Origin: an uncultured bacterium
GTDB lineage: Bacteria; Chloroflexota; Dormibacteria; Aeolococcales; Aeolococcaceae
Direction of reading: 5' to 3'
DNA length: 64,000 nt
Assembly: GCA_963716555.1 (NCBI GenBank)
Contig: CAVQTJ010000018.1
Coordinates: 392,413-456,412, forward strand
Shown here: positions 24,679 to 44,466 of the stretch, one piece after another
How positions within the stretch are numbered: the first letter of the stretch is position 1
How the letters are laid out: every line of letters starts with the position of its first letter
Position numbers and translations under genes: made by a program
Notes under the pieces: model-generated
Told to the model about the DNA's origin: nothing
The model's input: only the letters and a program-made list of their open reading frames with translations
The model's database searches: none

Positions 24679-24850
24679 TCAGCGCTGCGAGCCCGCGTGC
24701 TCCAGCGCGGTTTCGAGGCGCCACATCGCGTCGGCCCTGGCGATCGCCTCGCCGAGCAGCCCTGCGAACTGACGCTGGCGGACGTAGCGCTGGGCCGCCT
24801 CGGTCTCGTCGGCGTCCGCCGCGATCTGCTCCGGCCTCTTGGCGATCATT
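24679..24850 (-). CDS. Small hypothetical helical protein of about 57 aa. It is not in the ORF track.
   Basis: My reverse translation reads 'MIAKRPEQIAADADETEAAQRYVRQRQFAGLLGEAIARADAMWRLETALEHAGSQR*'. It has an ATG start and protein-like composition. Confidence 0.3.
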
Positions 24851-24967
24851 CTGGGGCTCTCCTCGTATCCTTACCCGCCGTGTGGTGTGCGGGCCCGGTT
24901 CCCATGAAACGTACGCCGGCCTTGGAGGGATTCGGGTCACGTCCCCTCCGAGGCTCGTTGAAGGTCC

Positions 24968-25360: not shown

Positions 25361-25370
25361 GCGCCCTGCT

Positions 25371-26108
25371 CTAGGCGGGGCGTGGAATCTCAACCGCCCC
25401 GGGAGCTGGGCAGTATTGGTCAAACCAGGCCATAACGTCGCTTTCGACCTGGTCGCGGTCGACGTCGACGGACATGCCGTGGCCGCTGCGCGGGAACATC
25501 CGGCGGCGCGACGGCGCGGCTGCAGAGCAGCCGGCGCTCGATCTCCGCGGCGTTGGCGGGATCGATGACCTGGTCGCGCTCGCCGTGGAGGATGAGCACC
25601 GGCGCACGGACCGAGACCAGCTCGTCGCGGACCTGGGCGAGCAGGCGCATCAGCTCGTGGATGGAGCGGGTGGAGCGGCGGCCGTAGGACCACAGCTCCT
25701 CGATGCCCTCGGAGGCGGTAGAGGTCGATCTCGCCGTGGGGACGGTCCCAGCGGTAGACGTACTTGACGACGGGGAGAAGCCAGGGGCCCGGTCCGGTGA
25801 GCCAGACCGGGGTGGCCAGGCAGGCGACCGCCGCGATGTCCGGCTCGGTGGCGGCCAGGTGGAGGGCGATCGCGCCCCCCGCCGACTGGCCGGCGATGAC
25901 CACGCTCGCGCACTCGGCGCGGAGCACGGTCGAGGGCCGCCCTCGCCGACTCGGCCCAGTCCGACCAGCTGGTCCGGCTCAGCGCCTCGGGGGTGGTGCC
26001 GTGGCCGGCGAGCAGCGGTCCGTGACACCGCCACCCGTCGGCGGCCAGCCGCTCACCGAGGCGGCGCAGCTCGGGCGCGGTGCCGGCGAAGCCGTGGAGC
26101 AGGAGCAC
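25371..26108 (-). pseudogene. Alpha/beta-hydrolase (carboxylesterase/lipase-like) gene broken into at least four frames.
   Basis: The N-terminal piece 'MLLLHGFAGTAPELRRLGERLAADGWRCHGPLLAGHG' is in one frame. The nucleophile region 'VVIAGQSAGGAIALHLAA' is in a second. 'VLILHGERDQVIDPANAAEIERRL' is in a third. The C-terminal His region 'FPRSGHGMSVD' is in a fourth. The colinear order is preserved across three frameshifts. Confidence 0.6.
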
Positions 26109-26221
26109 CCCTCGCGGCCGGCTCCGATCCGCCAGCCGGCCACCACCTCGGGGTCGAAGGGCTTGTCGGTGCGCGCCGCCATCCGTGCCGAGTGTAGTCG
26201 GCGGTGCTACCGTGCGCCTGC

Positions 26222-27250
26222 CATGACCGACGTGATCGTAGCGCCCTCAATCGGTCGTCGAGGGGCACGACCTCGACGTCGCGACCGCCCGGGAGGTGAT
26301 GGACGGATCATGGAGGGGGCGGCCACCCCGGCCCAGATGGGCGCCATCCTGGCCGCGCTCCGGGTCAAGGGCGAGACCATCGACGAGCTGACCGGGATGG
26401 TGACGTCGATGCGCGACCACGCCGTCCTGGTCGAAGCTCGGCGCTCCGGCGGTCGACACCTGCGGCACCGGCGGCGACCTCTCGCGCACCTTCAACATCT
26501 CGACCGCGGCCGCCCTGGTGGTCGCCGGAGCCGGATGCCCGGTGGCCAAGCACGGCAACCGGGCTCAGCTCGTCGCAGTGCGGCAGCGCGGACGTCCTCG
26601 AGGCCCTGGGGGTGGCCATCTCGCTGCCCCCGGCCGGGGTGGTGCGCTGCATCCGAGGTGCCGGGATCGGGTTTCATGCTGGCACCCGTCTACCACCCCG
26701 CGATGCGCCACGTCGGGATGGTGCGCCGGGAGCTCGGCATTCGCACCGTCTTCAACGTCATCGGGCCGCTGGCCAACCCCGCCCGGGTCCGCCACCAGCT
26801 GATCGGCACCCCCTCGGCCGCGCTGGCGGAGAAGATGGCGGGGGTGCTGCTCCAGCTCGGGCACCGGCGGGCGGTGGTGTTCTCCGGTCCCGACGGCGTC
26901 GACGAGCTGGTCCTCCACGCTCCCTGCCCGCGCCTGGGTGGTGGAGGAGGGGAGGGTCGAGGAGATCGATCATCGACCCCGCCCGGCTCGGGGTCAGCTC
27001 CGCGCCGCTCTCGGCGCTCGCCGGCGGGGACCCCGCCGACAACGCCTAGCGGATGCGCTCGGTGCTCGCCGGAGATGCCGGGCCGCTTCGGGATTGCGTG
27101 CTCCTCAACGCCGGGGCCGCCCTCTACGCGGCGGAGCGGGTGCCGAGCATCGAGGCCGGCATGGAGGAGGCCGAGCGGGCCCTCGACCGGGGCGCCGCCC
27201 AGGCCCGGCTGGACCTGCTCGTCCAGGTCTCGACCGAGGCCGCGGCGTGA
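26222..27250 (+). pseudogene. trpD: Anthranilate phosphoribosyltransferase (trpD) with several frameshifts and an internal TAG at 27047-27049.
   Basis: Colinear TrpD segments lie in alternating frames: 'VVEGHDLDVATAREVMDG', then 'IMEGAATPAQMGAILAALRVKGETIDELTGMV', then '[39 protein letters not shown]', then '[16 protein letters not shown]', then '[37 protein letters not shown]', then 'SIIDPARLGVSSAPLSALAGGDPADNA', then a stop, then 'RMRSVLAGDAGPLRDCVLLNAGAALYAA'. Confidence 0.65.
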
Positions 27251-27941
27251 CCCGGGGCCGCGCCCTTCTCGCCCTTCAGGAGCAGGACGAGAGGATCGCC
27301 GCCCTGCGCCGGGAGATCGCCGACCTGGAGGCGGTCCTGCGCGGCGAGTCCGAGTCGGACCGGCTCCGCGAGCAGTCCGAGGCCGAGGCGGCCCGGCGCA
27401 CCGCCGAGCTCGCCGGACGCAGCGTGGAGAAGGACCTGGCCGGGATCCGCCATCGCGCCCGCACCCTCGAGAAGCGGCTCTACGACGGCTCGGTTCACAA
27501 CCCCCAGGAGCTGCTCGGGATGCAGCACGACCTCGACTCGCTGCGGCCGATGATCGAGGAGCTGGAGGGGCGCCTCCTCGAGTCCATGGAGGTGAGCGAG
27601 CGTGCCGAGGCGGATCTGAGCCAGGCGCGCGCCACGGTGACGGAGCGCGAGGAGGAGCGGCGCTCCCAGGAGGGTCCCCGCCGCGACCGCCTGGCGGCGG
27701 CGGGGCGGGAGCTCGCCGAGCACGCCAGGCGGCCCGGGCAGAGACGGCAGCCGCGATCGACCCCGCTGACCTCCGGGTCTACGATCGGATCGCCGCTCGC
27801 CGCCAGCCGGCGGTGGTCCACCTGGAGGGCGACAGCTGTGGCGGCTGCCACCTCCCGCTCGCCGTCCGCGAGGTCCGGGAGGCCCGCTACGGCGACGGCG
27901 TGGTCCAGTGCAGCCGGTGCGACCGGGTGGTGACCCGCTGA
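27248..27941 (+). CDS. COG1579-type zinc-ribbon/coiled-coil protein, frameshifted once at about 27730-27745.
   Basis: The N-terminal coiled coil 'LLALQEQDERIAALRREIADLEAV...' is in frame 1. The C-terminal zinc ribbon 'VVHLEGDSCGGCHLPLAVREVREARYGDGVVQCSRCDRVV' is in frame 0. A GTG start overlaps the trpD-remnant stop. Confidence 0.55.
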
Positions 27942-27966
27942 CCCCAAGCGCCGCGTTGCGTCCCTC

Positions 27967-28545
27967 GTGCCGCCTAGAGTTGCGGAGATGACCGGGGCGA
28001 AACCTCTCCAGACGATGCCGGGCGCCTTCGACGGGCCCGGCGAGGCGCCCCAGCCCCAACGAGACCTCGCCCGCACCGACCCGGGCCGGCCGGGACCGGT
28101 CCCGTCCCCGCCCCTGCCCGGAGTGGTGATCGCCTACACCGACGGCGCCTGCTCGGGCAACCCGGGGCCGGGGGCCTGGGCGTACCGGCTGGAGTGGCCT
28201 GACGGCACCGTGGATGAGGCGACCGGCGCCGACCCCGCCACCACCAACAACCGCGAGGAGCTGAAGGCGGTCCGCGAAGCGCTGCGTGCGGTGCGGCGCA
28301 AGGTCGGGCCGGCGCCGGAGTGGTTGATCGTGGTCCGCACCGACAGTCTCGGGGTGCTCAACTGGCTGACCGGGAGGTGGCGGCGCAACGTCAACCTCGA
28401 CCTGTTCTCCGAGATCGATCCGATGGTGGACTCCCGGGTGCGTTTTGAGCACGTGCGCGGCCACTCCGGGCATCCGGGCAACGAGCGGGTGGATCAGCTG
28501 GCGGTGGCGGCCATCCGCCGTCTGGTCGCCGAGCGGGGTTCCTGA
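27967..28545 (+). CDS. rnhA: Ribonuclease HI.
   Basis: 'VIAYTDGACSGNPGPGAWAY', 'TTNNREELKAV', 'VRTDSLGVLNWL' and 'VRGHSGHPGNERVDQLA' together supply the DEDD catalytic residues. The N-terminus is probably shorter than the ORF-track start. Confidence 0.85.
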   Translation: MPPRVAEMTGAKPLQTMPGAFDGPGEAPQPQRDLARTDPGRPGPVPSPPLPGVVIAYTDGACSGNPGPGAWAYRLEWPDGTVDEATGADPATTNNREELKAVREALRAVRRKVGPAPEWLIVVRTDSLGVLNWLTGRWRRNVNLDLFSEIDPMVDSRVRFEHVRGHSGHPGNERVDQLAVAAIRRLVAERGS

Positions 28546-28642
28546 GCGCTCAAGACGGGTCGGGTGCCGGGCTCCTTGTGGGGTGCCCAACACCCGAATC
28601 TGGGTGGTGGCGGCGGTTCGGGAGAGGCGGCACAATGGGCGG

Positions 28643-29491
28643 GTGGAGCAAGCGCCGGAGCTGGAAGCGCGGCTGCAGGAGCTCGAGCGCCAGCACCAGG
28701 CGGGCACCATCTCGGAGCTCACCTTCAACCTGCAGCGGAACCTGCTGATCACGAGGTCAGAGGAGCGGGGTCGCAGGCGCGCGGCCGCCACCAGGGTCGC
28801 GCCGCCACCGGTCGCGTCGCCGGCCGGCCGCCATCACCCTCGTCGCCGGCCTGAGCTCCGCGAGCCAGCTCGGCGCCCGGCACCGCCTCCGGTCCCCGTG
28901 CACCGCGCGCCTCTGGCGCGCGGACCAGCACACCGCGTGCAGGTGCAGGTGGTCCTTGTTCTGACAACGGCCGCTGCGGTGCTGATCGCCGTGGTCGCAC
29001 TGGCCGTCAGCCTTCACCGGGCATCACCCCCACCGACCGCGCCGGCCGGTACCCCCTCCGCATCTGACGCCTCGCCGTCCACCGCGGCCACCTCCGCCTC
29101 GACCAGCGCGGATGAGGTGACGATCGGCGTGACCGAGACCGCCCCGGCCGGCGCCACCATCGACCTGCTCGCCTACTCCGACCACTTTGCGCCCGGGAGC
29201 CTCATCAACAACCCACTTCCGGCCGGTGGCTTCTACGCCGCCGCGGATCTGAGGATCTGTGCCACCACGGCGGCGGGGGTGGACGTGTCGCCCTTCGCGT
29301 TTGTCATGGTCGAACCCGACAAGAGCCAGGTCGGCATCGCCTCCGGGCCCGGAGAGGGCCTGCAGCCAGCACTGGCGCTGCAGCAGATGGCTCCCGGCCA
29401 GTGCGTGAGCGGTTGGCTCAGCTACGGCGTCAGTGCACGGCCGACCGCCCTTGAGGACACCGTCGACGGCCTCAGTTGGCCAATCCCCTAG
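28643..29491 (+). CDS. Hypothetical bitopic membrane protein with an N-terminal SHOCT-like motif, a Pro/Arg-rich linker, one TM and an extracytoplasmic beta domain (DUF4352-like). A GTG start is inferred.
   Basis: 'LEARLQELERQHQAGTISELTFNLQRNLLI' is SHOCT-like. The TM is 'VVLVLTTAAAVLIAVVALAV'. The C-terminal ~150 aa are Thr/Ala/Ser-rich. The ORF-track start at 28445 overlaps rnhA and is unlikely. Confidence 0.45.
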   Translation: MEQAPELEARLQELERQHQAGTISELTFNLQRNLLITRSEERGRRRAAATRVAPPPVASPAGRHHPRRRPELREPARRPAPPPVPVHRAPLARGPAHRVQVQVVLVLTTAAAVLIAVVALAVSLHRASPPPTAPAGTPSASDASPSTAATSASTSADEVTIGVTETAPAGATIDLLAYSDHFAPGSLINNPLPAGGFYAAADLRICATTAAGVDVSPFAFVMVEPDKSQVGIASGPGEGLQPALALQQMAPGQCVSGWLSYGVSARPTALEDTVDGLSWPIP

Positions 29492-29675
29492 GGGCGCCAT
29501 TCGGGCTTCGCTGCACGTCCAGGACAGGTGCCCAGCACTCACGGGACGACAGCCCACGGGTCGATGACGCTGCTGATCGCGTCAAGGGCAGGCCGCCCCT
29601 ACGCTCCCGGATACCGCCGAGCCCTCGATTCGGGACGTTGTCACGTGCCGTGGGCCTCATCCGGAGAGTGTCAGG

Positions 29676-30509
29676 GTGCCCGCCGAACTCAAGCTCAGTC
29701 CCAGCCCCACAGTAACCGCTGGGGGCCGGGTCGATGGCCGCCCCGGCGCGCCACTGACGGCGGTGTCGAGGTGGGAGGGTGCGGATTACGATCGTGAGGT
29801 CTTTCTGATCGCCTCGGGTGCAGATCGCGTCTGCGCATCTCTGTACTCGGCGCCGAACCCGACCCACGGCGTGGTGATCCTCCCCGGCTGGGCTCGCGAC
29901 GGCCGCTACCTGCTGGAGTGGAGCCACCAACTCGCGCTTGGTCTGGCCAAGCGCGGGGGATGCGGGGTCCTGATTCAATGGCCGGGCAACGAGGACAGCG
30001 AGGGAGACGTCGATGCGGTGACCCTCGACCGGCTGGTCGAGGTCGCCGCCGATGCGGTGGCCGCCGGACGGCTGCGCCACCCCGGCGCGCGCTGGTCGTT
30101 CGCCGGGCTTCGATTGGGCGGTGCGGTGGCGGCTCTGGCCGCTGGCCGGGCCCGGGCTTGCTCGATCGCCATGGTCCAACCCGACCTGGACCCGGTTGCC
30201 TATTTCGACCACGCGTCGCGTTCCGAGCGCCTCAATCTGCTGAGGGGCGACCCGCATCCGGGGTGGGCCTTCGGCACCCCGATGCCCGCGGGACTTCGCC
30301 AGCCGGACGCGGCCGCGCTGGTCCAACAGGCACTCGGGTCGTTGACCTGCCCAGCGGCGGTGATCCGCCATGCAGCTCCCAAGCTGGCTCCGCTGCCGGA
30401 CAGCGTCGCGGAGATCGTGGTGCCCGGAAACTGGTACTTTCCACCGGGGGGTGATCATCGCCCCCTGCGCCGGCAGGCCCTCAAGTACCTCACCCAACAG
30501 GCGCGGTGA
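29676..30509 (+). CDS. Alpha/beta-hydrolase-fold protein with a substituted nucleophile (G-L-R-L-G where G-x-S-x-G is expected).
   Basis: 'GVVILPGWARDGRYLLEWSHQLALGLAKRGGCGVLIQWPG' gives a strand-helix-strand core. The nucleophile elbow is 'WSFAGLRLGGAVAALAAG'. The stop overlaps the start of its paralog (ATGA). Confidence 0.5.
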   Translation: MPAELKLSPSPTVTAGGRVDGRPGAPLTAVSRWEGADYDREVFLIASGADRVCASLYSAPNPTHGVVILPGWARDGRYLLEWSHQLALGLAKRGGCGVLIQWPGNEDSEGDVDAVTLDRLVEVAADAVAAGRLRHPGARWSFAGLRLGGAVAALAAGRARACSIAMVQPDLDPVAYFDHASRSERLNLLRGDPHPGWAFGTPMPAGLRQPDAAALVQQALGSLTCPAAVIRHAAPKLAPLPDSVAEIVVPGNWYFPPGGDHRPLRRQALKYLTQQAR

Positions 30510-31444
30510 CCTGTCTCATGAAGATTGAGCCTGTCCTCATCAACACATCGGGCGGGGTGGTCGGAGCGATGGTCACGTCACCATCGGGTCCGCCTCGAGC
30601 AACGGCGCTGATCTTTCAGGCCGGCGCCGGATGCACCCGTTCGGGCCTCAACCAGCTGCAGACCCGGATGGCAATCTCGTTTGCCGGCCTCGGCATCCGC
30701 AGCCTGCGGTTCGACTATGTCGGGATCGGCGAGAGTCATCTCGGCGAGCCGAGCCGGTGGGCTGACGTGAGCACCGAGGTCGTCGGCTGGTTTCGCGAGA
30801 ATTGGGGAGCGGATCGTCCCCTGGTGGTTGCCGAATGCGCGGGCATCCTCTCGGCCCATGTCGAGCTCCTGACCGGCCGCGAGGTGCTGGCCGTGGGCCA
30901 CGTCCTCCCGCCGATGTTCAGCCTCACGGCGACCTCCGCGCCGGCCGGGGGGAGGCGGGCGCGCCGCATCGCCGGTCGGGTCAAGCGCTGGCCGCGCAGC
31001 AAGCTGTTCCGGCTGCGATACGGTCCCCCTGATCCGAGGTTGCAGACGATGTGGCCGTCCAGTGCCTATCTGGGCGGCGGTGGAAGCCTCGAGGAACTCA
31101 GTCGAGGACGTGATGGATTCGGCGAGCTGCTGATTGGCATCTCGAAGCGCGCGCCGTTGTGGATTCTGTCGAGCGCGGCCGATCCCTCGACCGCCAAACT
31201 CCAGGCGGTGCACGACCGGCTCGCCGCCGGCGTCGATTACCAGCTGGAGGTCATCCCACGCCCGCAGGGCCAGGGTCGACTCCCGGGCACCGCAGAGGTC
31301 GTCAAGGCCACCGAAGCGTGGGCGATCCGCCGGCTGCTTGTTGCCCAAACGGGGGAGGGGCCACCTCCTGAAATGGTTGCGCAGATGAGCGATGTGTCAG
31401 CGGGAGTTTCGGCGGTCAGCTCGAGTTCGTCGATCTCCGCCTGA
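30506..31444 (+). CDS. Alpha/beta-hydrolase-fold paralog with Cys at the nucleophile-elbow position (A-E-C-A-G).
   Basis: 'ATALIFQAGAGCTRSGLNQLQTRMAISFAGLGIRSLRFDYVGIGES' precedes the elbow 'LVVAECAGILSA'. 312 aa. Confidence 0.5.
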   Translation: MTCLMKIEPVLINTSGGVVGAMVTSPSGPPRATALIFQAGAGCTRSGLNQLQTRMAISFAGLGIRSLRFDYVGIGESHLGEPSRWADVSTEVVGWFRENWGADRPLVVAECAGILSAHVELLTGREVLAVGHVLPPMFSLTATSAPAGGRRARRIAGRVKRWPRSKLFRLRYGPPDPRLQTMWPSSAYLGGGGSLEELSRGRDGFGELLIGISKRAPLWILSSAADPSTAKLQAVHDRLAAGVDYQLEVIPRPQGQGRLPGTAEVVKATEAWAIRRLLVAQTGEGPPPEMVAQMSDVSAGVSAVSSSSSISA

Positions 31445-31452
31445 AGGATGAG

Positions 31453-31698
31453 GTGAGCATGACAACCGACAAGCAGATAACCCGCTTCATCGAGAGAGAG
31501 CTCCTCGATGGCGCCCCTGGCGGTGGGGACCCGCTGGCAGCCTTGGATTCCCTGTCCATGGAGACGTTGATCGCGTATCTGAGCGACCACTACGGCATCA
31601 CCTTCGATGACGAGGATACGGTTGCCGAGAACTTCTCGAGCGTCACGGCACTCGCCAGCTTGGTTGACGCCAAGCGGGCGGCCGGGGCAGCCCGATGA
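31453..31698 (+). CDS. Stand-alone acyl/peptidyl carrier protein (phosphopantetheine attachment site).
   Basis: 81 aa. 'LDSLSMETLIAYL' contains the conserved DSL Ser, and the composition is helical and acidic. Its stop overlaps the next gene's start (ATGA). Confidence 0.75.
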   Translation: MSMTTDKQITRFIERELLDGAPGGGDPLAALDSLSMETLIAYLSDHYGITFDDEDTVAENFSSVTALASLVDAKRAAGAAR

Positions 31699-33369
31699 TC
31701 GAGGCGACCGCGACCGCGGAGACGACCCTGCTGGATCGCTTCCGGCGGTTGGCGGCGGAGGGAGGGGGGGAAGCTCGTCTTCCATCAGGAGGCCGGACCG
31801 GTATCGATCTCGATTGCGGAGCTGTATCCGAGAGCGCTGCTCCGAGCTTCCCAGCTCGCTGCGCAGGGGGTGGGACGGGGTGACGCGGTGGGCGTGGTGG
31901 GGCGCAATGCTCCGGAATGGGCGGAATGGGCCTGGGGCATCTGGCTCGCCGGAGCCGCCCTGGTCCCGCTGCCCGCCCCAGTGCGCGTTCGAGATCGCAA
32001 CGCCTTTGTCCATCAGGTCGGCACGTTCCTCGAGGCCTCGGGGTGCACCCACGTGGTCGGCGAAGCCCGGTATCTCGATGCGCTGGCTCCGGAGCGGTGC
32101 GTCCTGATCAACTGGTCTGTCGAGCCCACGGGGGTCGCAGCCGCTGTGCCTGCCGAGCCGGCGCCTTCCGAGACGGCTCTGGTGATGTGCACGTCTGGAA
32201 GCACTGCCGAGCCCAAGGGGATCCGGGTCAGCCACGCCATGCTGCTGGCGCGGTCGGAAGCGGTCAAGATCGGGGAATTCCTCGGCATCGAGGGACCGGT
32301 TGTCAGCGTGTCCTGGCTTCCCTTCTATCATGTCGGCGGCCTGTCCGCGATCTCCATGCTATCGTCGGAAACCGCGGACCGACACATACTCCCGGTGGAG
32401 CGCTTCGTGAGCGATCCGGCCGAGTGGTTGCGCCTGGTGAGCCTCACCCGCGCGCACCTCACCGGGGGCCCATCCTCGGGATGGGCGGCCGCAGTCAGGG
32501 CGCTGGCGCACCGACCCGGCGAGATCGACCTCTCCTGCATCCGATTCGCCGGGTTCAGCCTCGAGATGGTCGATCCTGACGTCGTGGAAAGGGTGATCGA
32601 GGTCTGCCGGCCGCTGGGATTGCGTCCGGAGACCCTCTCGGCGGCGTATGGACTGTCGGAGGCCGGTGGCGGAACGATGACGCCCCCAGGGAAGGGGATC
32701 AGGATCGACACCGTCGACCTCGATGCGCTGGTGAGCTTGGACACGGCGTTGCCGCCAAAGCCGGGCCGTCCTGTGAAGCGGATCGCCTCCTGCGGATCGG
32801 TGACGCCCAGGACCGACCTGGTGATCGGGTCGCCGCTGGCCCCCCTTCCGGAGCGTCATGTGGGTGAGATCCACCTCCGCAACGCTGCCTCCACGGACGG
32901 ATACGTCAACACCGGCAATGACAATCTGTTCATCGACGGGTGGCTGCGCACCGGTGACCTCGGATACGTGGCCGATGGCGAGCTGTTCATCACCGGTCGT
33001 TCCAAGGAGATGATCGTTCACCTGGGACGCAACTACTACCCGCAGGACGTCGAGTGGGCGGTGTTGCGGGCCACCGGCGCGGCGGCCAACAGCTGCGTCG
33101 CCTTCTCGCCCGTCCGGGGTGAGGAGGGGGATGTCATCGTGGTCCTCGAGGAGGTGCCCGGGACCGATCGGAAGGATCTCCCCGCGATCGCGCGTGCCGC
33201 CGTGGTCAACGCCGTGGGGCTGACCCCGCGAGAGGTTCTGGTGGTCGCGCGGGGCAGCATCCCCACCGCCCACAACGGCAAGCTTCAGCGGCTCCGTGCA
33301 CGGGAGATGTTCGACCGGGGACAGCTCGACGCTGAGCCTGCTGCCGCTCGACTCGCGCCCAAGCCATAG
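31695..33369 (+). CDS. Fatty-acyl-AMP ligase / acyl-CoA-synthetase-like adenylating enzyme, with a frameshift at a G7 run (31764-31770).
   Basis: The adenylation motifs are 'LVMCTSGSTAEPKGIRVSH', 'YGLSEAGGG', 'LRTGDLGYV' and 'ITGRSKEMIVHLGRNYYPQDVE'. The FAAL-like 'FHQEAGPVSISIAELYPRALLRASQLAAQGVGRGDAVGVV' N-terminus is in frame +1 relative to the ATG at 31695. Confidence 0.7.
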
Positions 33370-33506
33370 GCGCAAGTCCCAGGGCGCCGGAGGACATCGG
33401 GGGCGGCCCAGAGGTCGCCCCGCCCAGGACCGCGTGATGGCCCATTCACGGGCGGTGGCCCCACTGCATACGCTCGCGGTGGCCGCTTGACCTTGAGGGG
33501 ATTCGT

Positions 33507-35573
33507 TTGGACATCGGATGGGCGGGAACTCTGCTGCTCGCCACGACCGGCGCGATCGTGGGGGCAGCTTCGCTCTACCTTCTGGGACTTGCGCTTGCGG
33601 CCCTGCGCCCACCGCGGGCCGCCCCCCTGGGTGGCGGCCACAGCCGCCTCGCCGTCATCGTGCCCGCCCACAACGAGGCCGAGCTGCTGCCCCGCTGCCT
33701 GGCTTCGCTGCGCGCCCAGGACTATCCCCCAGATCGTTTCGAGGTCCTCGTCGTCGCCGACAACTGCACCGACAGCACCGCCGCCGTGGCTCGGGACGGG
33801 GGTGCGCGGGTTCTGGTTCGCGACCAGCCGGACCTGCGCGGCAAGGGCCGGGCGCTGCGCTGGGCCATGGACAGCCTGCTGAGCTCGGCGAACCCGCCCG
33901 ATGCGGTGGTGGTCGTCGACGCCGACTCGGTGGCGGACACCGCCTTGCTCCGGTCCCTGGAGGGCGCCATGCTCGCCGGAGCCGAGGCCGTGCAGGCCGA
34001 GTACCTCGCCCTGGGCGAGGCGTCGTCGGGCGCCACGCTGCGCCAGGCGTCGTTTCTGCTCTTCCACCGCACGCGATTTGCCGGAAGGGCGGCGCTGGGA
34101 ATGGCCTGCAGCCTGGTCGGCAACGGAATGCTCTTCACCCGATCGCTGCTCGAGAGGATGCCGTGGAACGCATTCACGGGCGCGGAGGACCTGGAGTATT
34201 CGACCGAGCTCCGCCTTCGCGGGGTCCGGCCGGTCTTCACCTCCGCGGCGGGGGTGGCGGCTCCGGCCGCCGGGTTCGGGAGGGGGGCCGCGACTCAGCG
34301 GATGCGCTGGGAGGGAGGCCGGTTCCACGTCGCCCGGACCCGACTTCCCGACCTGATGACCTCAGCCGTCCGCCGCCGCGACTGGTCGCTCCTGGACGCC
34401 GCGGCCGACCTGGCGGTGCCCCCCCTCGGGCTGCTGGTCATGCTCGCCCTCCTGGGCGGCGCGGCCGGCCTCGCCCTTTGGGTCGCCGGGCTCACCCCGC
34501 TGTGGGTGGGGATCATCTGGTGGGCGGCGCTGCTGGCGATTGCCGGACACGTCCTCATCGGCCTGCGCGCGGCAAGAGCGCCGGCCTCGGCCTATCGGGC
34601 GCTGCTGCAGACGCCACGCTTCCTGGTCGTCAAGCTCGGCACCTACCTGCGGATGTCGCGGGGCCTGCGGGCCGACCGATGGGAGCGCACCGAACGCCCA
34701 TCGGAGGCGGGCCACGGCGTCGACCGACCGAACCCGCCGACCGGCGCGCAGCGGCTCAACGTCTGCGGGGTGCCCATCGACCCGGTTGACCGGGCCCAGG
34801 CGGTGGACCGCATCCTGGCCTCCGTGGGATCGGGGAGCGTTCTCCAGGTGTGCACCGTCAACCTCCAATTCCTGGTCACGGCCCGGAGGCGGCCGGAGGT
34901 TCGGCGAGCTCTCGGCGATGCCGGTCTCAACCTGGCCGACGGCGCGCCGGTCACCTGGCTGGCCCGGCTGCTCGGGCGACCCCTGCCCGGCCGCGTGGCC
35001 GGCGCCGACCTGGTCCCGGCGCTGGCGGCTCGATCGGCCCAGACGGGGGCCCGACTCTTCCTGCTGGGTGGCAGGGATGGCGCCGCTGTCGATGCCGCGG
35101 CGGCACTGCGCCGGGAGCACCCCGACCTCATCGTATGCGGCATTCATGAACCGCCCTTCGCATCGGTCGCGGAGATGGACGACGCGGCCCTCCTCAGCCG
35201 TGTGGAGGAAGCGGCTGCCGACATCCTGCTGGTCGGTTTTGGACATCCCAAGCAGGATCTCTGGATCGCGGCGCACCGGGACATGCTTCCGGTCTCGGTG
35301 GCGATCGGGGTGGGAGGCACCTTCGACCTTCTGGCGGGGCGTCTGCGCCGCGCTCCCCGGTGGGCACGGAGGAGTGGGCTCGAGTGGTGCTTCCGACTGG
35401 CGCAGGAGCCGCGCCGGCTGGCGCTCCGCTACGCAGCCTGCGCGACCTGGCTGATCGGCGTGCTCGTGCCCATGGCAGCGTGGCAGCGAATTGCCGGCGC
35501 CAACGTCACCACGGCGGCCACGGGCTCCGAGGTGGTGGCGGTCGAAGCCCAGGGCGGGAGCGTGTACCCGTGA
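33507..35573 (+). CDS. Two-domain glycosyltransferase: an N-terminal GT2 (PgaC/N-acetylglucosaminyltransferase-like, multi-TM) fused to a C-terminal WecB/TagA/CpsF (GT26) domain.
   Basis: The GT2 part reads 'LAVIVPAHNEAELLPRCLASLRAQDYPPDRFEVLVVADNCTDSTAAVA', 'VVVDADS' and 'QRMRWEGG' (a QxxRW-like motif), followed by TM helices. The GT26 part reads 'LNVCGVPIDPVD', 'LQVCTVNLQFLV', 'LADGAPVTWLARLLG' and 'LLVGFGHPKQDLWIAAH'. Confidence 0.75.
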   Translation: MDIGWAGTLLLATTGAIVGAASLYLLGLALAALRPPRAAPLGGGHSRLAVIVPAHNEAELLPRCLASLRAQDYPPDRFEVLVVADNCTDSTAAVARDGGARVLVRDQPDLRGKGRALRWAMDSLLSSANPPDAVVVVDADSVADTALLRSLEGAMLAGAEAVQAEYLALGEASSGATLRQASFLLFHRTRFAGRAALGMACSLVGNGMLFTRSLLERMPWNAFTGAEDLEYSTELRLRGVRPVFTSAAGVAAPAAGFGRGAATQRMRWEGGRFHVARTRLPDLMTSAVRRRDWSLLDAAADLAVPPLGLLVMLALLGGAAGLALWVAGLTPLWVGIIWWAALLAIAGHVLIGLRAARAPASAYRALLQTPRFLVVKLGTYLRMSRGLRADRWERTERPSEAGHGVDRPNPPTGAQRLNVCGVPIDPVDRAQAVDRILASVGSGSVLQVCTVNLQFLVTARRRPEVRRALGDAGLNLADGAPVTWLARLLGRPLPGRVAGADLVPALAARSAQTGARLFLLGGRDGAAVDAAAALRREHPDLIVCGIHEPPFASVAEMDDAALLSRVEEAAADILLVGFGHPKQDLWIAAHRDMLPVSVAIGVGGTFDLLAGRLRRAPRWARRSGLEWCFRLAQEPRRLALRYAACATWLIGVLVPMAAWQRIAGANVTTAATGSEVVAVEAQGGSVYP

Positions 35574-36778
35574 GCGGCGCCGTGGGATCGGCGGAGCTGC
35601 CCGCACGAGCTTCCCGCCGCCTCGACGGCGTGGACGGCCTGCGCGCCCTGGCAGCCCTCTGGGTCGTGCTGTTCCACATCCGGGCCTTCAGCGGAGCGCG
35701 TCTCGGACCGCTGGACATCCTCGTCCGCAGCGGCTCCACCGGAGTCAGCCTGTTCCTGGTCCTGAGCGGTTTCTGCCTCTACATTCCGGTCGCCCGTGCA
35801 GGGACCCAGAGCTTCGGGGTGGGCCGCTTCCTGCGCCGCCGCGCCACCCGCCTCCTCCCGGCCTATTACGTCTCCCTGATCATCATCCTGGCGGTGACCG
35901 TGGTGGCCGCCGGCCCCCTGGGCCTCGCTCCCCTGAGCGGCACCCAGATCGCGATCCAGGCCGCGACCCACCTGACCATGACCCACTCGCTATTTCCCAG
36001 CACCTTCTATGCCCTGAACGGGGCCTATTGGTCGCTGGGGCTCGAATGGCAGCTCTACCTGGCCCTGCCGATTCTCGTCTTCGGTGTGCGCAGGTTCGGT
36101 TTTGCCCGTACCATCGCGGCGGCAGTCATGGTCAACGTCGCATACCGCCTCGGCCTGCAGTTCGCCTTCGACCTCCATGCCGTCTCCCCCACCTCGCCCC
36201 TCGGCCAGGACGTGCTGCCCAACCTGCTCCCCGGCCGCTGGGCGGAGTTCGCGTTCGGCATGGTCGCCGCTCAGCTGTATGCGTCCCGGCGGATCGCGCT
36301 GTGGGCTCACCGATCCGGCTGGGCGGTGCTCGGGCTCATCCCCCTGACCGGGCTGTCGCTGATCTCGGTCGGAAGCCCCCTCGAGCACCTGCTGTTCGGA
36401 GCTGACTTCTTTCTGCTTCTCTGCATCGTCCTGGCACGTGAGAACTGGGTGTCGCGGATCGTGTCCTGGCGTCCGCTGGCCGCGGTGGGGGTGATGTCGT
36501 ACAGCCTCTATCTGGTCCACCAGCCGATTGTCGCCTCGCTCTCCGCCATCTTTCTGCGGCTCGGCGGATCGCCGCGACTGGTGTTCCTGGAGGTGCTCCT
36601 GCTCCTGCCCGCGATCATCGGCGTTGCCTGGCTGCTCTTCGTCACGGTGGAGCGCCGCACCCTCCGCGCCTCCGGCTCGGCGGAGCCGGGAAGTCCTGAG
36701 GCCCTGCTGCTCACGCCGCTGAATCTCCTCAAGCGTCGTCGCGGCGTGGTGACCCCCACCGTCGTCGACGCCGCATGA
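35570..36778 (+). CDS. Acyltransferase family 3 (OatA-like membrane O-acyltransferase). A GTG start overlaps the upstream stop (GTGA).
   Basis: 'LDGVDGLRALAALWVVLFHI', 'STGVSLFLVLSGF' and 'ATRLLPAYY' are conserved AT3 motifs. It has about 10 TM helices. Confidence 0.8.
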   Translation: MSGAVGSAELPARASRRLDGVDGLRALAALWVVLFHIRAFSGARLGPLDILVRSGSTGVSLFLVLSGFCLYIPVARAGTQSFGVGRFLRRRATRLLPAYYVSLIIILAVTVVAAGPLGLAPLSGTQIAIQAATHLTMTHSLFPSTFYALNGAYWSLGLEWQLYLALPILVFGVRRFGFARTIAAAVMVNVAYRLGLQFAFDLHAVSPTSPLGQDVLPNLLPGRWAEFAFGMVAAQLYASRRIALWAHRSGWAVLGLIPLTGLSLISVGSPLEHLLFGADFFLLLCIVLARENWVSRIVSWRPLAAVGVMSYSLYLVHQPIVASLSAIFLRLGGSPRLVFLEVLLLLPAIIGVAWLLFVTVERRTLRASGSAEPGSPEALLLTPLNLLKRRRGVVTPTVVDAA

Positions 36779-37101
36779 GCGGGCCGAACCGGAGGGGGAC
36801 GCCGCGCTACGTGGTGCGGATGACCCTGGCTGGGGGGTCCAGCACGGATCTCACCTCCGACCTGCCCTGGCGCGAGGCTCGGGGGGCCCTGACCATGGTG
36901 CGCCGCATCTTCGGCCATCCCGACGCGCGGGCCGAGGGCTGGATCGCCTCTTCGATGCACCACGGCTTCGGGGCCTCGAAGGGCGATGTCTCGGTCAGCT
37001 TCACCGTCGAGGACGTCGGTCCCATCGATCTGGTGGGTCGTGCCGGCGCGGAACGCCGCCGGGGGTCAGAGCGATTGTCGATCGAGCAGCGCAGCGGCTG
37101 A
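36775..37101 (+). CDS. Hypothetical small protein, possibly translationally coupled to the acyltransferase by an ATGA overlap.
   Basis: 108-aa ORF of moderate complexity. Uncertain. Confidence 0.3.
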   Translation: MSGPNRRGTPRYVVRMTLAGGSSTDLTSDLPWREARGALTMVRRIFGHPDARAEGWIASSMHHGFGASKGDVSVSFTVEDVGPIDLVGRAGAERRRGSERLSIEQRSG

Positions 37102-37866
37102 TCAGGCGGCGGACGATGCCGGTGCGGCTGCGCGACTGCTGCGCACCGCGGCGCCGAAACGCGCATCACACCGCGGACACTCGGTCAGGTGGCCCTCGAG
37201 AGCGCGGAGCCGGTCCTTGCGCAGCGATGCCAGGCGCAGGTTCTCGAACACGAAGACCGCCTCCCGGCATTCCGCGGGCAGCGATGCCCCCGCCTCGACG
37301 TTGACGTACGCCGTCCTGAAACTCTCTCGGGCGCGGTGGAGGAGGCCCTGAACCGAGCCGCAGGTGATGCCCAGAGCGGCCGCTGCCTCGGCCTCGGAGT
37401 GTCCCATCACGTCGCGCAGGATCAGAACATCACGCTGTCGATCGGGCACCGAGAGGATGGCGGCGCGGACCAATCGGCGGGTCACGTTCAGCTCCAGCGC
37501 CTCTTCGGGGCGGGCGCTGCGATCCTCGTCGATGGCGGTGCTCATCGCCAGCTCCGACGCGGCGGCACCGAGATGGGCCTGCGCCCGCCGGGTCCGGCGG
37601 CGCAGCTCATCGATACAGAGGTTGGCCGCCACCCGGTGGGTCCAAGCACCGATGTCGCTGTCCCCAGGCATCCCGGAGATCTTCTCGAACGTCTGGCAGA
37701 AGGTGTCTTGGAGGACGTCCTCGACGGTCTCCCAGTCGTGCAGGTAGTTCCAGCACATTCCGCGAAGCCGGTCGCTCAGCATCAGCAGATCGAGGACCCC
37801 TCGATCGCCGGTTGGAAGCGGCCGCCGGGAGGCAGCATCCTCCGCGCTATGCGAGTACTCGATCAC
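37102..37866 (-). CDS. ECF-type sigma-70 factor with a C-terminal zf-HC2 (anti-sigma-like) extension.
   Basis: Region 2 is 'DVLQDTFCQTFEKI'. The region 4 HTH is 'RQRDVLILRDVMGHSEAEAAAALGITCGSVQGLLHRARESFR'. About 60 further aa follow, containing 'ECREAVFVFENLRLASLRKDRLRALEGHLTECPRCDARF', which is the HLxxCxxC pattern of an anti-sigma N-domain. Confidence 0.75.
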   Translation of the reverse strand: MIEYSHSAEDAASRRPLPTGDRGVLDLLMLSDRLRGMCWNYLHDWETVEDVLQDTFCQTFEKISGMPGDSDIGAWTHRVAANLCIDELRRRTRRAQAHLGAAASELAMSTAIDEDRSARPEEALELNVTRRLVRAAILSVPDRQRDVLILRDVMGHSEAEAAAALGITCGSVQGLLHRARESFRTAYVNVEAGASLPAECREAVFVFENLRLASLRKDRLRALEGHLTECPRCDARFGAAVRSSRAAAPASSAA

Positions 37867-38117: not shown

Positions 38118-40858
38118 TCATGGTTTACCGTGACTCTCGACCGCATCCTCCGCCGTCAGGGCCGCCGCCAGCTCCATCCGGGATCGCACACTCAGCTTGG
38201 TGAACACTCTCTGGAGGTGGGTCTCGACCGTGTTGACCGTCACCGAGAGCGACGCGGCGATCTGCCGGTTGGTGCGGCCCCGAGATGCGAGCTCGGCAAC
38301 CCGGCGCTCTCGCGGGGTCAGCTCCATCCCTGAGGTGACCCGGCGCGAGCGCGCTCCCCCCGCCGCCGCGAGCTCGTCGCGGAGCTGTCCAACGAGAAGA
38401 TCGGCTCCGGCGTGCTCGGCTCGGCGCAGGCCCTGGGCCAGCGGGCTTCGGGACTCCACCCGGCGCCCGGTGCGGCGCAGCAACCGGCCCAGCTGGAGCA
38501 GGCCCGCGATCCGGTCCACCTCCAGCCCGCCCGCGTCCGCGGCGCGGATCGCGGCGCGAAGGCCCGCCTCCGCGGCGGGCAGGTCGCCCTCCAGCTCGGC
38601 GAGGATCGCCCGCCCCTGGGCGGCTGCCATTCGCGGCCAGCTGCAGGGCAGGCGGGCGGCGGCCGCTTCCAGCCTCTCGGTGAGCCGGGTGGCGGCGGTC
38701 ACATCGGAGGAGCCGGCATGAGCCTCGATGGCCCGCAGACCCCAGGGGACGACGCACGGCTCCTCCATGCCGAGGCGTTCGGCGATGCGCTCCACCTCTC
38801 GGTAGCCGGTGGCCGCCCTCTGCGGGTCGCCCACAGCCAGGTACCGCTGCGCTCTCACATGGGAGACCCAGAGGGCGGCCAGCGGTTCCTCACCGATCCG
38901 CGTCGCCACCAGCGCGGCTTGGCAGGCTTCCTCGCTCTCCTCGAGTCGACCCTGCTGGAAAAGGATCGCGGCCCGGAGCGCGGCGGCTCGGGCCCGGATC
39001 CCCGGCGCCGCCTCGGCGGACCGCTCAGCCGCCGTGACCAGCGAGGCCGCGTCGTCGAGGCGGCCCAGGCGGAGCCTGGCGTCGGCCCGGGTGACCATGA
39101 GCTGAGCCGCGGCGAGGGGGGCGCCCTCGTGGCGGGCGATGGTCGCCATCACCTGCAGGAAACTGTCCGCGTCTGCCGATTGCCCCGCGTAGATCGCCAC
39201 CGCTCCGAAGAGCTCCGCACTCCCCAGCGGCATGGCCAGCGCGTCGGGGCGCCGCCGTGGATCCTCGAGGCCGCGCCAGGCGGGATCGTTGTGGGCCGCC
39301 GGGCCGGGGGCGTTGCCGGCGACGCTCGCAAGGTAGGCTGCGACCGCCGCCACCCGGGCCCGGCTGGTCTGATCCGGGCATCGTGCCTCGGCCTCGGTCA
39401 GGGCGCGCTGGGTGGCGGGTACGCCGCTCTGCTGCCACAGCATCAGGGCGTGACCGACGAGGCCCTGCACCGCCAGCTCGGGGGCCGAAGAGCCGGCCAC
39501 CTCAGCGGCGCGCAGGTAGTGGCTCGCGGCGCTGGTTCGCCTCCCCGAAGCGCAGCAGGCGTCGGCGAGGGTCAGAAGGACGCGCGCCCGCGCCGCGTCG
39601 TCGGGGATCTCACCGTAGCGCTGGAGCCTCTGGAGCACGCTGCCGGCAGCCACCGGCCGGCCCGACAGCAGCAGTGTCTGGCCGAGCGAGAGGCGAAGAT
39701 CGAAGCTCGCCGAGGCGCCGGCCAGCTCGACCGCTGCTCGGAAGTGCCGCGCCGCAGCGACGGTGGACCCGTCCTCGAGGGCCTTGGCCGCCGCCCGGCG
39801 GACGATGTCGACGGCCCCATCGACCTCGAACAGATCGGCGCTCAGGGCGTGGTCGGCCGCCCGGGATTCGAGCCCGCGACGAGCCAGCGCTGCGAACGCC
39901 CGAGCATGGAAGCGCCGGCGCATCGGCAGCGAGAGGTCGGCGTACAGCGCCTCGCGCAGCAGCGGCTGCGCGAAGTCGAGTGATAGGTCGGACGACTCTC
40001 GAAGGACACCGGCCTGGCAGAGGGTGTCCAGCGCGCTGTCACCCGGCGCTCCATCCATCCGCGCGATCTCGGTGACGAGGTCGGAAGCGAATGGCGCCTC
40101 GAGGACCGTGGCCGCCTGTGCGCATTGCACCGAATCGGGATCGAGCCCGGCCAGAAAAGACCTGACCGTGGTTGGTGAGAGGCGGATGGCCGCCTCTGCG
40201 CCGGCGCCGTTGCTCAACCCGCTCAACGCGCGGACCGCATCGGAAAGGACCAGTGGATTGCCGCCGCAGCTGCGCCAGACCGTCTCGACGGTCGCGTCGC
40301 TCAGCTCGCGGGCGCGTTCCCGGAGGACCCCCGCCGCCTCGGTCAACGTGAGCGGTTCGAGGTCCACGGCGGTGGCCATCCGGTCTCGGCTCAGCTCGGC
40401 GCTGAGGTTGGCCGCACCGGCCGGCCAGGGGCGGAGGGTGGCCATCAATCCCACCCCCATGGATTCGGTGCGCCGGAAGAGGTAGCTGAGCACGGCGAGC
40501 AACTCCAGGTCTGCCCACTGGAGGTCGTCAACTCCGACCAGGGTCGGGCCCGACCAGCGCTGCTCCAACCGGCGGGCCAGCCGCTGAGCGGCGGCGACCC
40601 CTCCGGCTCCGTCACCGTCGGGGCCGGAGCCTGAGGAGCCGAGCAGCTGACGGGCGAGGGCCAACGGCCATTCCTGTTCCAGGGCCGCGGCTCGGACGAT
40701 CACCACCTCGAGCCCGGCACGACGCGCAGCCTCGGCGGTCTCGCTCAGAAGGCTGGTCTTGCCCAGCCCCGCACGGCCGACGATGAAGAGGCCACCACCT
40801 CGCCCGGCGCGCACCCCCGCCACCAGCGCAGACGCCGCCGCCACAGCCTCAGCCATGT
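38118..40858 (-). CDS. LAL/MalT-type large ATP-binding LuxR-family regulator. The probable start is M at 'MAEAVAAAS'; the ORF track extends it to 41054.
   Basis: N-terminal P-loop 'GLFIVGRAGLGKTSLL', a long TPR-like helical middle, and the C-terminal LuxR HTH 'LTPRERRVAELASRGRTNRQIAASLSVTVNTVETHLQRVFTKLSV'. Confidence 0.8.
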
Positions 40859-40916
40859 CCCAGATACCGTCCCCCGCGGCGCATCTACTCTCGCCCGCCA
40901 TTCTCGCATAGCAGGC

Positions 40917-40951
40917 GCTTTTCCACACCCTGGAAGGGCTTTTCCACACCC
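40917..40951. promoter_or_regulatory. Two 14-bp direct repeats GCTTTTCCACACCC with a 21-bp period, in the divergent region between the LAL regulator and the EPS operon.
   Basis: Seen directly: GCTTTTCCACACCC tggaagg GCTTTTCCACACCC. Confidence 0.45.
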
Positions 40952-41088
40952 CGAGTGGGAGGGGTGAGGCTCGTGGGCCGGCCGGCTCCCGGTCGGGCGC
41001 GCCCTCGCCCGATGGGGGAGGACATTCGCCCAGGTTGTAACGGAAACTTCCCATCGCGTCACGAAACGGTGGCAGTCACCATGGAGAG

Positions 41089-44438: not shown

Positions 44439-44466
44439 CGGCGTACCAGGCGCCCAAGCCGCTCGC

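Follow-up and report, generated by a model that had tools for sequence, protein, structure and literature searches.

In XrtA/PEP-CTERM exopolysaccharide (EPS) loci, two families of α/β-hydrolase-fold proteins, TIGR03101 and TIGR03100, are catalogued alongside an AMP-forming acyl-CoA ligase (TIGR03098) and a pyridoxal phosphate (PLP) decarboxylase (TIGR03099). A locus related to this module was analysed in a 64,000-nt stretch of contig CAVQTJ010000018.1 (hereafter the window; G+C content of approximately 70%) from an uncultured bacterium of the Dormibacteria. There, seven genes of the + strand at 29676-37101 (g1 to g7, Table 1) encode two hydrolase-fold proteins (g1 and g2), a putative acyl carrier protein (ACP; g3), a fatty-acyl-AMP-ligase (FAAL)-like enzyme (g4), a fusion of two glycosyltransferase (GT) domains (g5), an acyltransferase-3 (AT3) protein (g6) and a small conserved protein (g7). 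The locus is a divergent, apparently exosortase-independent and FAAL-equipped variant of a catalogued, never characterised gene-neighbourhood module. We propose that it acts in polysaccharide decoration, where a carrier-protein-dependent, Cys-mediated transacylase would acylate the lipid-linked EPS repeat unit, a reading in which our confidence is evenly balanced. As in the TIGR03101/TIGR03100 pair, two adjacent and mutually distant α/β-hydrolase-fold proteins are found in an EPS locus with an adenylating enzyme nearby, here also with a carrier protein. Unlike that setting, none of the open reading frames (ORFs) scanned within the window gave a match to an exosortase or a PLP decarboxylase, and g4 is FAAL-clade, TIGR03098 not being among its 25 best NCBIfam matches.

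The text of Haft 2006 (PMC1569441) mentions no hydrolase, carrier protein, ligase or decarboxylase. In Burkholderia cenocepacia, the TIGR03100 protein Bcam1334 adjoins the AT3 protein Bcam1333 in the Wzx/Wzy-type Bep EPS cluster (Bcam1330-1341), and the authors of that study assumed for Bcam1334 a hydrolytic quality-control role (PMC3584217). The present locus likewise has a TIGR03100-type protein beside an AT3 in a Wzx/Wzy EPS cluster; however, no ACP or FAAL is reported for the Bep cluster, and its hydrolase-like domains appear to be fused or in tandem, not encoded by two genes. A B. cenocepacia replicon of the plasmid collection searched below (L028) also carries hydrolase-2-like and hydrolase-1-like domains in tandem and may correspond to the Bep cluster. 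A third comparison concerns the amino acid:[carrier protein] ligases resembling aminoacyl-tRNA synthetases (aaRS), which a 2022 review (PMC9437257), summarising Mocibob et al. 2010 and 2013, describes as class II aaRS homologues loading Gly, Ala or Ser, with a biological role stated to be unknown. Cassettes with such ligases, described below, also combine a stand-alone carrier, a dedicated loader and a protein of the hydrolase-2/hydrolase-1 type, with a probable AT3 as well in Mycetohabitans, but they use a class II aaRS homologue and not a FAAL, and carry acyl-CoA dehydrogenase-like, DUF1839 and GH2 genes.

The gene set also recalls two better-known pathways. Nod factors are made by NodC (a GT2 with QxxRW), NodB (CE4), NodA with NodF/NodE (acyl-ACP-dependent N-acylation) and NodX (AT3), and the present locus shares with them a membrane QxxRW GT2, a CE4 deacetylase within the island, a dedicated ACP, a proposed acyl-transfer step and an AT3 O-acyltransferase. 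It differs in following a Wzx/Wzy repeat-unit pathway with an initiating phosphoglycosyl transferase, instead of building a free oligosaccharide; no NodA-like match was found among the seven proteins, and the GT2 domain of g5 reached 20.5 bits with the NodC model, whose cut-off is 550. In the D-alanylation of teichoic acids, the adenylating enzyme DltA, the carrier DltC, the membrane acyltransferase DltB and DltD take part in the esterification of a cell-surface glycopolymer, so that both have an adenylating enzyme and a stand-alone carrier, along with a membrane acyltransferase and a helper of hydrolase fold. Here, however, the acyltransferase is AT3 and not MBOAT, the adenylating enzyme is FAAL-clade and not a D-Ala ligase, and the hydrolase-fold proteins are cytoplasmic α/β-hydrolases, not an extracytoplasmic SGNH-like protein such as DltD.

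Family, fold and signature residues of the g1-g2 pair

As judged by profile comparisons, the g1-g2 pair is a remote relative of TIGR03101/TIGR03100, families that are catalogued but uncharacterised; an earlier reading of the window from its letters and ORFs (the sequence-only reading), which could not match the domain set to any named pathway, was half right in this respect. Among 5.8 billion proteins, word-indexed searches returned four homologues each for g1 and g2. Such searches gave 4-5 matches each, even with a 37-sequence alignment, and the family became visible via an exhaustive profile search, where the g2 profile matched 3290 cluster representatives (50% identity), of which 267 reach E ≤ 1e-10. 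A scan of a genome collection with the A1 alignment recovered only the already known Dormibacteria contig.

The matches of the g2 family are single-domain proteins of 240-300 aa and two-domain proteins of 500-640 aa. TIGR03100 was matched by all ten g2 relatives scanned (19-133 bits, each below the cut-off) and was the only NCBIfam match of the five single-domain ones. In the four two-domain fusions scanned, the N-terminal domain corresponds to TIGR03101 and the C-terminal domain to TIGR03100; the fifth long match, P0120, has a cytochrome P450 domain instead of TIGR03101. Moreover, the g1 profile matches the N-terminal domains of fusions (E 3e-52 to 6e-13), being significant for three of the four scanned with NCBIfam (P0036, P0075 and P0088). 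These matches indicate that g1 is hydrolase-2-like and g2 hydrolase-1-like, the gene order being the domain order of the fusions, and since many bacteria have such domains joined in this order in one polypeptide, a physical association of g1 and g2 is predicted. In P0088 (815 aa; locus L020, 185-2632), the hydrolase-2-like and hydrolase-1-like domains are followed by a C-terminal CE4 polysaccharide deacetylase. This domain order mirrors the gene order of the related loci L012-L015, where a CE4 gene comes after the FAAL that ends a g1-g2-ACP-FAAL cassette. Because the scores lie far below the curated cut-offs, neither g1 nor g2 is a member of the TIGR03101/TIGR03100 equivalogs, and g1, g2 and g7 have no Pfam match.

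Regarding the fold, the AlphaFold2 (AF2) model of g1 (pLDDT 73.7, pTM 0.78) is an α/β-hydrolase, which Foldseek relates to esterases and lipases of the PDB with a probability of 1.0 and E 3e-11. The g2 family profile matches PDB hydrolases (E 2.8e-16), placing its Cys on the Ser nucleophile and its Asp on the acid. Both proteins had been described as paralogous, which is the case only at a deep superfamily level: BLASTP gives E 1.4 between them, and profile-profile comparison aligns them with a probability of 92.7% (E 4e-7, 108 columns), with Arg146 of g1 on Cys107 of g2.

The nucleophile elbows read G-L-R-L-G in g1 (30105-30119) and A-E-C-A-G in g2 (30830-30844), as the sequence-only reading had it, but its view of them as degenerate, Ser-less hydrolases did not survive the alignments, where both residues are signatures and not signs of decay. 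Cys107 is at the nucleophile position of g2, and Cys is present in 135 of the 144 aligned representatives (G-x-C-x-G), including those nearest TIGR03100. Arg146 is at the same position of g1, with Arg in 32 of 43 g1-like domains (G-[LIV]-R-x-G-A). Asp222 of g2 is also conserved, and the g2 family has the further motifs R-x-G-x-N, R-x-D-Y-P-G-x-G-[DE]-S and G-E-x-D. The pair then resembles TIGR03100 and TIGR03101 in having G-x-C-x-G on the hydrolase-1 side and G-x-R-x-G on the hydrolase-2 side, and in the fusion order matching g1-g2; it differs from them in its scores, in a g2 clade devoid of the canonical His, and in a host belonging to Dormibacterota, not Proteobacteria.

In the loop of the canonical His, g1 of the window clade has G-G-D-[H/Y]-R. 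Its residues D260-H261-R262 (30453-30461) are invariant in four aligned clade members, and the L009 homologue has D-Y-R. The pattern is mostly reversed in the remaining pairs and fusions, where the His is present in the g2-like part and G-G-D-[H/Y]-R is missing from the g1-like part. A split triad with the His donated in trans by g1 was considered and finds little support, the L009 homologue having Tyr in place of His. A polymerisation similar to that of polyhydroxyalkanoate (PHA) synthases, suggested by the G-x-C-x-G box, was ranked very low, as no PHA synthase appears among the 60 listed of the 197 PDB sequence matches to the g2 profile.

The carrier-protein core and its companions

The closest proteins are from Candidatus Dormibacterota/Dormibacteria metagenome-assembled genomes (MAGs) and from peat metagenomes. 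g1-g2-g3 is syntenic in at least three further lineages with 40-63% amino acid identity, which argues that this grouping is more than chance. The g1-g2-ACP unit is found in four Dormibacterota-type lineages, namely the window with L010 and L011, L001-L008, L009 and L012-L015, and a FAAL is directly attached to it in two of them. L010 and L011 have the order g1-g2-ACP-FAAL-GT2. In L012-L015, g1-g2-ACP is followed by a FAAL (62% identical) and the CE4 deacetylase, flanked by Wzy, PIG-L (a faint match), GT2s and Wzx. In L009, it comes after GATase_3 and is followed by PLP and HTS-like genes and an unrelated AMP-binding enzyme. L001-L008, a peat-metagenome lineage, have g1-g2-ACP-g7-GT2/GT26-AT3, then an extracytoplasmic function (ECF) sigma factor, a large ATP-binding LuxR-family (LAL) regulator and the phosphoglycosyl transferase, with no FAAL within 10 kb; at 11139-12037, the FAAL position after the ACP and before the GT2-GT26 gene is taken by the g7 homologue. 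In these loci, an M20 peptidase/deacylase gene precedes g1. The FAAL is not a fixed member of the cassette, being absent where g1-g2-ACP-g7-GT-AT3 is kept, and frameshifted in the window. The constant core is g1-g2-ACP, which is accompanied in a variable manner by the FAAL, the GT fusion and the AT3.

The assignment of g3 as a carrier protein is weak but credible. The stand-alone phosphopantetheinyl carrier of the sequence-only reading falls below the Pfam PP-binding threshold (PF00550, 16.5 bits against 20.8, E 0.01) and matches the NCBIfam ACP models AmcB (1.1e-6) and OlsHI-ACP (2.1e-6), each below its cut-off. The phosphopantetheine-site motif D32-S33-L34 (31546-31554) is kept in four lineages, and the size and position of g3 are typical.

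g4 has an AMP-binding domain (PF00501, E 1.7e-38) and a DIP2-like C-terminal domain according to Pfam. Its NCBIfam matches are PRK07768 (1.6e-89), the FAAL model PRK09192 (2.5e-82) and MbtM (4e-65), each below its cut-off, and its best PDB relatives are E. coli FAAL (3pbk, E 8.6e-52), then McyG and FadD32. Based on these similarities, g4 is placed in the FAAL clade, adjoining a stand-alone carrier protein. Aligned with E. coli FAAL, it has one single-residue gap across chain residues ~340-404, approximately where the FAAL-specific insertion blocking CoA use is located.

The presence of a membrane GT2 and a WecB/TagA GT26 domain in a single polypeptide was confirmed for g5. The GT2 motifs DAD138, GAED225-228 and QRMRW264 (34296-34310) are also kept in the L001 orthologue, and transmembrane or hydrophobic segments are at ~8-35 and 295-355; from these motifs and helices, the N-terminal domain appears to be a cellulose-synthase-like membrane GT2 of the processive type. 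Its best solved relative is 6yv7, presumably a minimal cellulose-synthase-like membrane mannosyltransferase. The GT26 domain (residues 415-652) reaches 190 bits with PF03808 (threshold 27.4) and 139 bits with TIGR00696 (69), and E 8.7e-40 with the TagA structure 7mpk; TagA acts on undecaprenyl-diphosphate-linked acceptors. NCBIfam models for EpsU-like (8e-69) and EpsA-like (4e-40) proteins also match g5, and the fusion is present in L001-L008 at 61% identity. For g6, likewise 61% identical to its orthologue in L001-L008, the AT3 domain at residues 19-357 (PF01757, 103.2 bits against 31, E 1.9e-29) agrees with the earlier label of OatA-like acyltransferase-3, but the architecture is not OatA-like, as no SGNH domain is fused to it. 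No family match was found for g7 in the Pfam or NCBIfam scans.

Outside this phylum, a fusion protein searched by tblastn in plasmids and chromids gave 58 records; the contexts described here are those inspected among the annotated ones, three records carrying no annotation. No gene in this collection is annotated as a bona fide exosortase-A-associated hydrolase. In Azospirillum (L023, 3092-10803), Mycetohabitans (L025, 1511-10842) and Phyllobacterium (L030, 8068-15708), the fusion is part of a shared cassette with an ACP, an acyl-CoA-dehydrogenase-like gene, an aaRS-like amino acid--[ACP] ligase, DUF1839 and GH2, and an 'acyltransferase family protein' gene, a name usual for AT3 enzymes, is found upstream of it in Mycetohabitans. 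In Roseateles and Shinella, the fusion is inside a Wzx EPS locus, with asnB, an ACP and a class I adenylate-forming enzyme a few kb away in the former and PIG-L beside the pair in the latter; in B. gladioli, it is inside a Wza/Wzc/Wzy/Wzx cluster with an acyltransferase. More distant unfused pairs occur in polysaccharide loci with sulfotransferases (L017 and L018). Both of these loci also have PqqD-like and NTP_transf_5 genes together (L017, 1083-2475; L018, 14117-15482). Thus, the carrier proteins of the pair occur with three unrelated loaders, FAAL-like, aaRS-like amino acid--[ACP] ligase and, in Roseateles, a class I adenylate-forming enzyme. In addition, sugar or amide deacylases are beside the pair or fused to it, for example CE4 in P0088, L012-L015 and the present island, PIG-L in Shinella and M20 in L001.

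Proposed acyl transfer to the repeat unit and its alternatives

From the observed gene content, folds, signature residues, family relationships, fusions and neighbourhoods, we infer a g1-g2 complex, an acceptor and a series of chemical steps. g4 would adenylate a carboxylic acid, probably fatty or hydroxy-fatty, and load it on the phosphopantetheine arm of g3. g1 and g2 would form one heteromeric cytoplasmic transacylase, where g2 would accept the acyl group from the carrier onto Cys107 at the nucleophile elbow, then pass it to a sugar hydroxyl or freed amino group of the undecaprenyl-diphosphate-linked repeat unit. With Arg in place of the nucleophile, g1 may be a non-catalytic or substrate-binding partner, for instance for the anionic phosphopantetheine or diphosphate. 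The GT2-GT26 fusion would add sugars to the lipid-linked intermediate. As characterised AT3 enzymes use acyl-CoA donors, g6 is treated as a separate step, possibly adding a short O-acyl (acetyl-type) group with the stand-alone SGNH protein encoded downstream; nothing ties the AT3 to the ACP-borne acyl group.

The coupling to a carrier protein, which recurs despite the changing loader, together with the elbow Cys and the two-part fusions, suggests that the transacylase depends on a carrier protein. As acceptor, a cytoplasmically modified sugar of the lipid-linked repeat unit is most likely, since the pair is found most often in polysaccharide loci, deacetylase and AT3 neighbours are common, and g1-g4 have no membrane segments; none is predicted for g7 either, so that the chemistry would be cytoplasmic. 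The general idea of the sequence-only reading, an acyl decoration of a glycan, is then backed by the context, with Wzx/Wzy loci, AT3 and sugar deacetylases beside the pair. The deacylases beside or fused to the pair also fit a logic of deacetylation followed by reacylation, which is established with N-acylation for lipid A (LpxC/LpxD) and Nod factors (NodB/NodA) and is an analogy only here.

Several observations weigh against this proposal. To our knowledge, there is no biochemical datum for any member of either hydrolase family, whose TIGRFAM models are 'hypothetical equivalogs'. The relationship to these families is far below their curated cut-offs, as g1 has no direct NCBIfam match and g2 matches TIGR03100 with 18.2 bits (E 1.2e-3) over residues 28-81 only, for a cut-off of 168.45. 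The AF2 model of g2, from a 4-sequence alignment, is poor (pLDDT 42), and the canonical His, kept in about half of the wider g2 family, is absent in the window clade. The FAAL, broken in the window and absent from L001-L008, may be dispensable or replaceable. The operon structure is unproven, a 137-nt spacer separating g4 from g5, and promoter and terminator scans and the folding of this spacer were uninformative. Finally, the contexts are not uniform: L022 has two tandem fusion genes among unrelated genes, and L009 adjoins PLP and homoserine-acyltransferase-like genes outside polysaccharide loci.

A more specific version of the transacylase proposal, which we regard as speculative and quite doubtful, is an obligate heteromer with a shared active site, where g2 would give Cys and Asp and g1 would give the His of D-H-R, the elbow Arg of g1 holding phosphopantetheine or undecaprenyl-diphosphate. 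The fatty acyl group activated by the FAAL would then move from the carrier protein to a repeat-unit sugar freed of its N-acetyl group, and the exopolysaccharide would become lipidated.

The two exceptional contexts also bear on an unlikely alternative, where g1-g2-ACP, with or without the FAAL, serves the synthesis of a small molecule (for instance, an N-acyl amino acid, a lipid or some other carrier-built metabolite), the GT genes being adjacent by neighbourhood only. The 9.4-kb contig of L009 shows no GT, its triad being accompanied by GATase_3, a PLP enzyme of the Cys/Met type, an HTS-like acyltransferase and a different AMP-binding enzyme, and the isolated tandem fusions of L022 and the gap between g4 and g5 point the same way. 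The cassettes with an amino acid:[ACP] ligase, carrying an acyl-CoA dehydrogenase-like gene and DUF1839, resemble small-molecule tailoring; even these, however, are accompanied by a GH2 glycosidase and a probable AT3 gene. N-acyl amino acid synthases have also been linked to exosortase loci in the literature cited in PMC4897644. Against a small-molecule product, most of the sampled contexts are polysaccharide loci, the pair forms one protein with a CE4 polysaccharide deacetylase in P0088, and g1-g2-ACP-g7-GT-AT3 are contiguous and co-directional in the L001 lineage.

It is quite unlikely that g1/g2 is a hydrolase (thioesterase or esterase) instead of a transferase, releasing or editing the carrier-bound acyl group or trimming O-acyl groups from the polymer. 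Its fold is that of esterases and lipases, and closer TIGR03100 relatives, such as P0088 and P0070, keep a full Cys-Asp-His triad; but in this fold the replacement of Ser by Cys is associated with acyl transfer or with chemistry via covalent intermediates, PHA synthases and Cys-type thioesterase domains being examples, and the window clade has no canonical His for the activation of water. A hydrolytic function is also what was assumed for Bcam1334 (PMC3584217). As predicted cytoplasmic proteins, g1 and g2 would have the secreted polymer out of reach, and a dedicated ACP and loader would be wasteful for a product that is merely hydrolysed.

The state of g4 itself has to be considered here. Contrary to what the sequence-only reading implied, the FAAL is not a single ORF in the window: the frame opened by ATG 31695 closes after 61 codons, and the remainder of the gene, ~31768 to 33369, lies in the +1 frame. 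The break is at a poly-G tract, which is the sole indel over 6.1 kb between the window and both L010, from a Dormibacterota MAG, and L011, an assembly of an independent read set, each 99.7% identical to the window and encoding an intact g4 of 558 aa. Once repaired, the g4 translation of the window is 100% identical to the L010 orthologue; the L012 orthologue is 62% identical. Since a second gene of the window, a GT4, is also split, the break in g4 is most likely an assembly indel, and the two breaks together suggest either assembly indel errors or several pseudogenes. A genuine phase-variation switch, the tract toggling EPS acylation between G7 and G9 as a contingency locus, seems very unlikely to us. 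The tract is close to the 5' end of a gene for surface-polysaccharide modification, its length varies between near-identical populations, and G9 is the longest homopolymer among the loci examined; but the 2-nt difference is what homopolymer compression would give, and the frameshifted GT4 of the same 64 kb is not on a long homopolymer. In the L012-L015 contigs, the long G/C runs are outside the orthologue (two checked), so that a comparable tract is not expected there.

It is hardly credible that g1 and g2 are inactive, decayed hydrolase remnants or, as the sequence-only reading had allowed, scaffolds, in a degenerating cassette. In favour of this view, neither has a Ser nucleophile, g2 has no canonical His, and the FAAL is broken in the window and missing in the L001 lineage. 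Against it, dozens of 50%-identity clusters share the elbow Cys and Arg, the coding signal of both genes is strong and their identity between lineages is still 40-63%, two independent assemblies 99.7% identical to the window have an unbroken FAAL, and the frame-broken GT4 points to assembly indels.

The exopolysaccharide island and the wider family

A Wzx/Wzy-type EPS island at 29.7-63.1 kb has the seven genes as its left border, as the genes upstream of ~24 kb are unrelated housekeeping genes and the large EPS locus noted by the sequence-only reading is directly downstream. Its seven co-directional genes proved real, being backed by frame analysis of G+C at third codon positions (GC3) and by conservation in related Dormibacterota contigs, and its domain inventory was right for the FAAL-like enzyme, the GT2-GT26 fusion and the AT3, as seen by Pfam and NCBIfam. 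Regarding the overlapping start and stop codons, ATGA at 31695, GTGA at 35570 and ATGA at 36775 are as described, but the junction at 30506 is GTGA and not ATGA; ATG 30518 is the likelier start of g2, GTG 30506 being the alternative. Exact-sequence look-ups of g5 and of P0001 gave no match.

Table 1. Coordinates of the seven genes and of the exopolysaccharide island in the window
Feature	Position	Strand	Description
g1	29676-30509	+	277 aa, soluble α/β-hydrolase-fold protein, relative of 'hydrolase 2, exosortase A system-associated'
g2	30518-31444	+	308 aa, soluble α/β-hydrolase-fold protein, relative of 'hydrolase 1, exosortase A system-associated'
g3	31453-31698	+	81 aa, putative stand-alone acyl carrier protein
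g4	31695-33369	+	FAAL-like adenylating enzyme, frameshifted in the window; 558 aa if the poly-G tract is G9
Poly-G tract	31764-31770	+	G7 in the window, G9 in L010 and L011; site of the FAAL frame break
g5	33507-35573	+	688 aa, membrane GT2 (cellulose-synthase-like) fused to a GT26 WecG/TagA domain
g6	35570-36778	+	402 aa, AT3-family membrane acyltransferase
g7	36775-37101	+	108 aa, small soluble conserved protein; 49% identity (tblastn, E 1.8e-21) to the L001-lineage homologue
ECF-type sigma factor	37102-37866	-	Convergent with g7, syntenic in the L001 lineage; candidate regulator
LAL-type regulator	38118-41054	-	Large ATP-binding LuxR-family regulator, syntenic in the L001 lineage
Initiating phosphoglycosyl transferase	41089-42594	+	Bac_transf and CoA_binding_3; core EPS genes begin; 74% identity in L001-L008
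Stand-alone SGNH/GDSL protein	42607-43287	+	Possible AT3 partner
Rest of the EPS island	43299-63104		GT9, four GT4 (one frameshifted), methyltransferase, GT2 genes
Three ORFs	44467-46302, 46220-47203, 47457-49499	-	Little or no family assignment; inside the EPS island
Split GT4	49834-50998	-	Glyco_transf_4 half 50576-50998, Glycos_transf_1 half 49834-50535, in different frames; frameshift near 50575-50600
CE4 polysaccharide deacetylase	56781-57494		Within the island
Wzx flippase	57461-59128		Within the island
Wzz-like chain-length protein	61174-62370		Weak match, below the Pfam threshold

No Wzy polymerase was identified within the island; it may be among the three unassigned ORFs of the - strand. 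Of these three, the 611-aa ORF has a HAD-like segment only, failed the GC3-based gene call and overlaps an opposite-strand ORF of 652 aa, so that it may not be a real gene.

To the left of g1, the GC3 phase shifts several times across 24600-29500, which may reflect further frame breaks or overlapping small genes. This region has a 725-aa ORF (25764-27941, +) with partial TrpD-type (Glycos_transf_3) matches and a C-terminal Zn_ribbon_9 match, as well as an RNase H gene at 27967-28545. Further upstream, a 646-aa ORF (15789-17729, +) combines nicotinate phosphoribosyltransferase domains with an isochorismatase (nicotinamidase-like) domain and adjoins an NrtR-type Nudix regulator (15038-15742), looking like a fusion for NAD salvage.

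The value of these observations rests mainly on the hypothesis for the whole family and is lower for this locus, given its uncultured host, the inferred chemistry and a FAAL break that probably arose during assembly. The hydrolase-2/hydrolase-1 pair has a wide distribution: many soil, plant-associated and pathogenic bacteria have it in their EPS and biofilm loci, one of these being the Bep cluster of B. cenocepacia. The present comparison offers a testable hypothesis for this entire uncharacterised family, namely that it may act as a carrier-protein-dependent transacylase on glycans. The fusion is likewise a candidate downstream partner for the aaRS-like carrier-protein ligases. If the transacylase with a shared active site were true, it would give the TIGR03100/TIGR03101 families their first function and would supply the missing downstream enzyme of the cassettes with an aaRS-like amino acid:[carrier protein] ligase.

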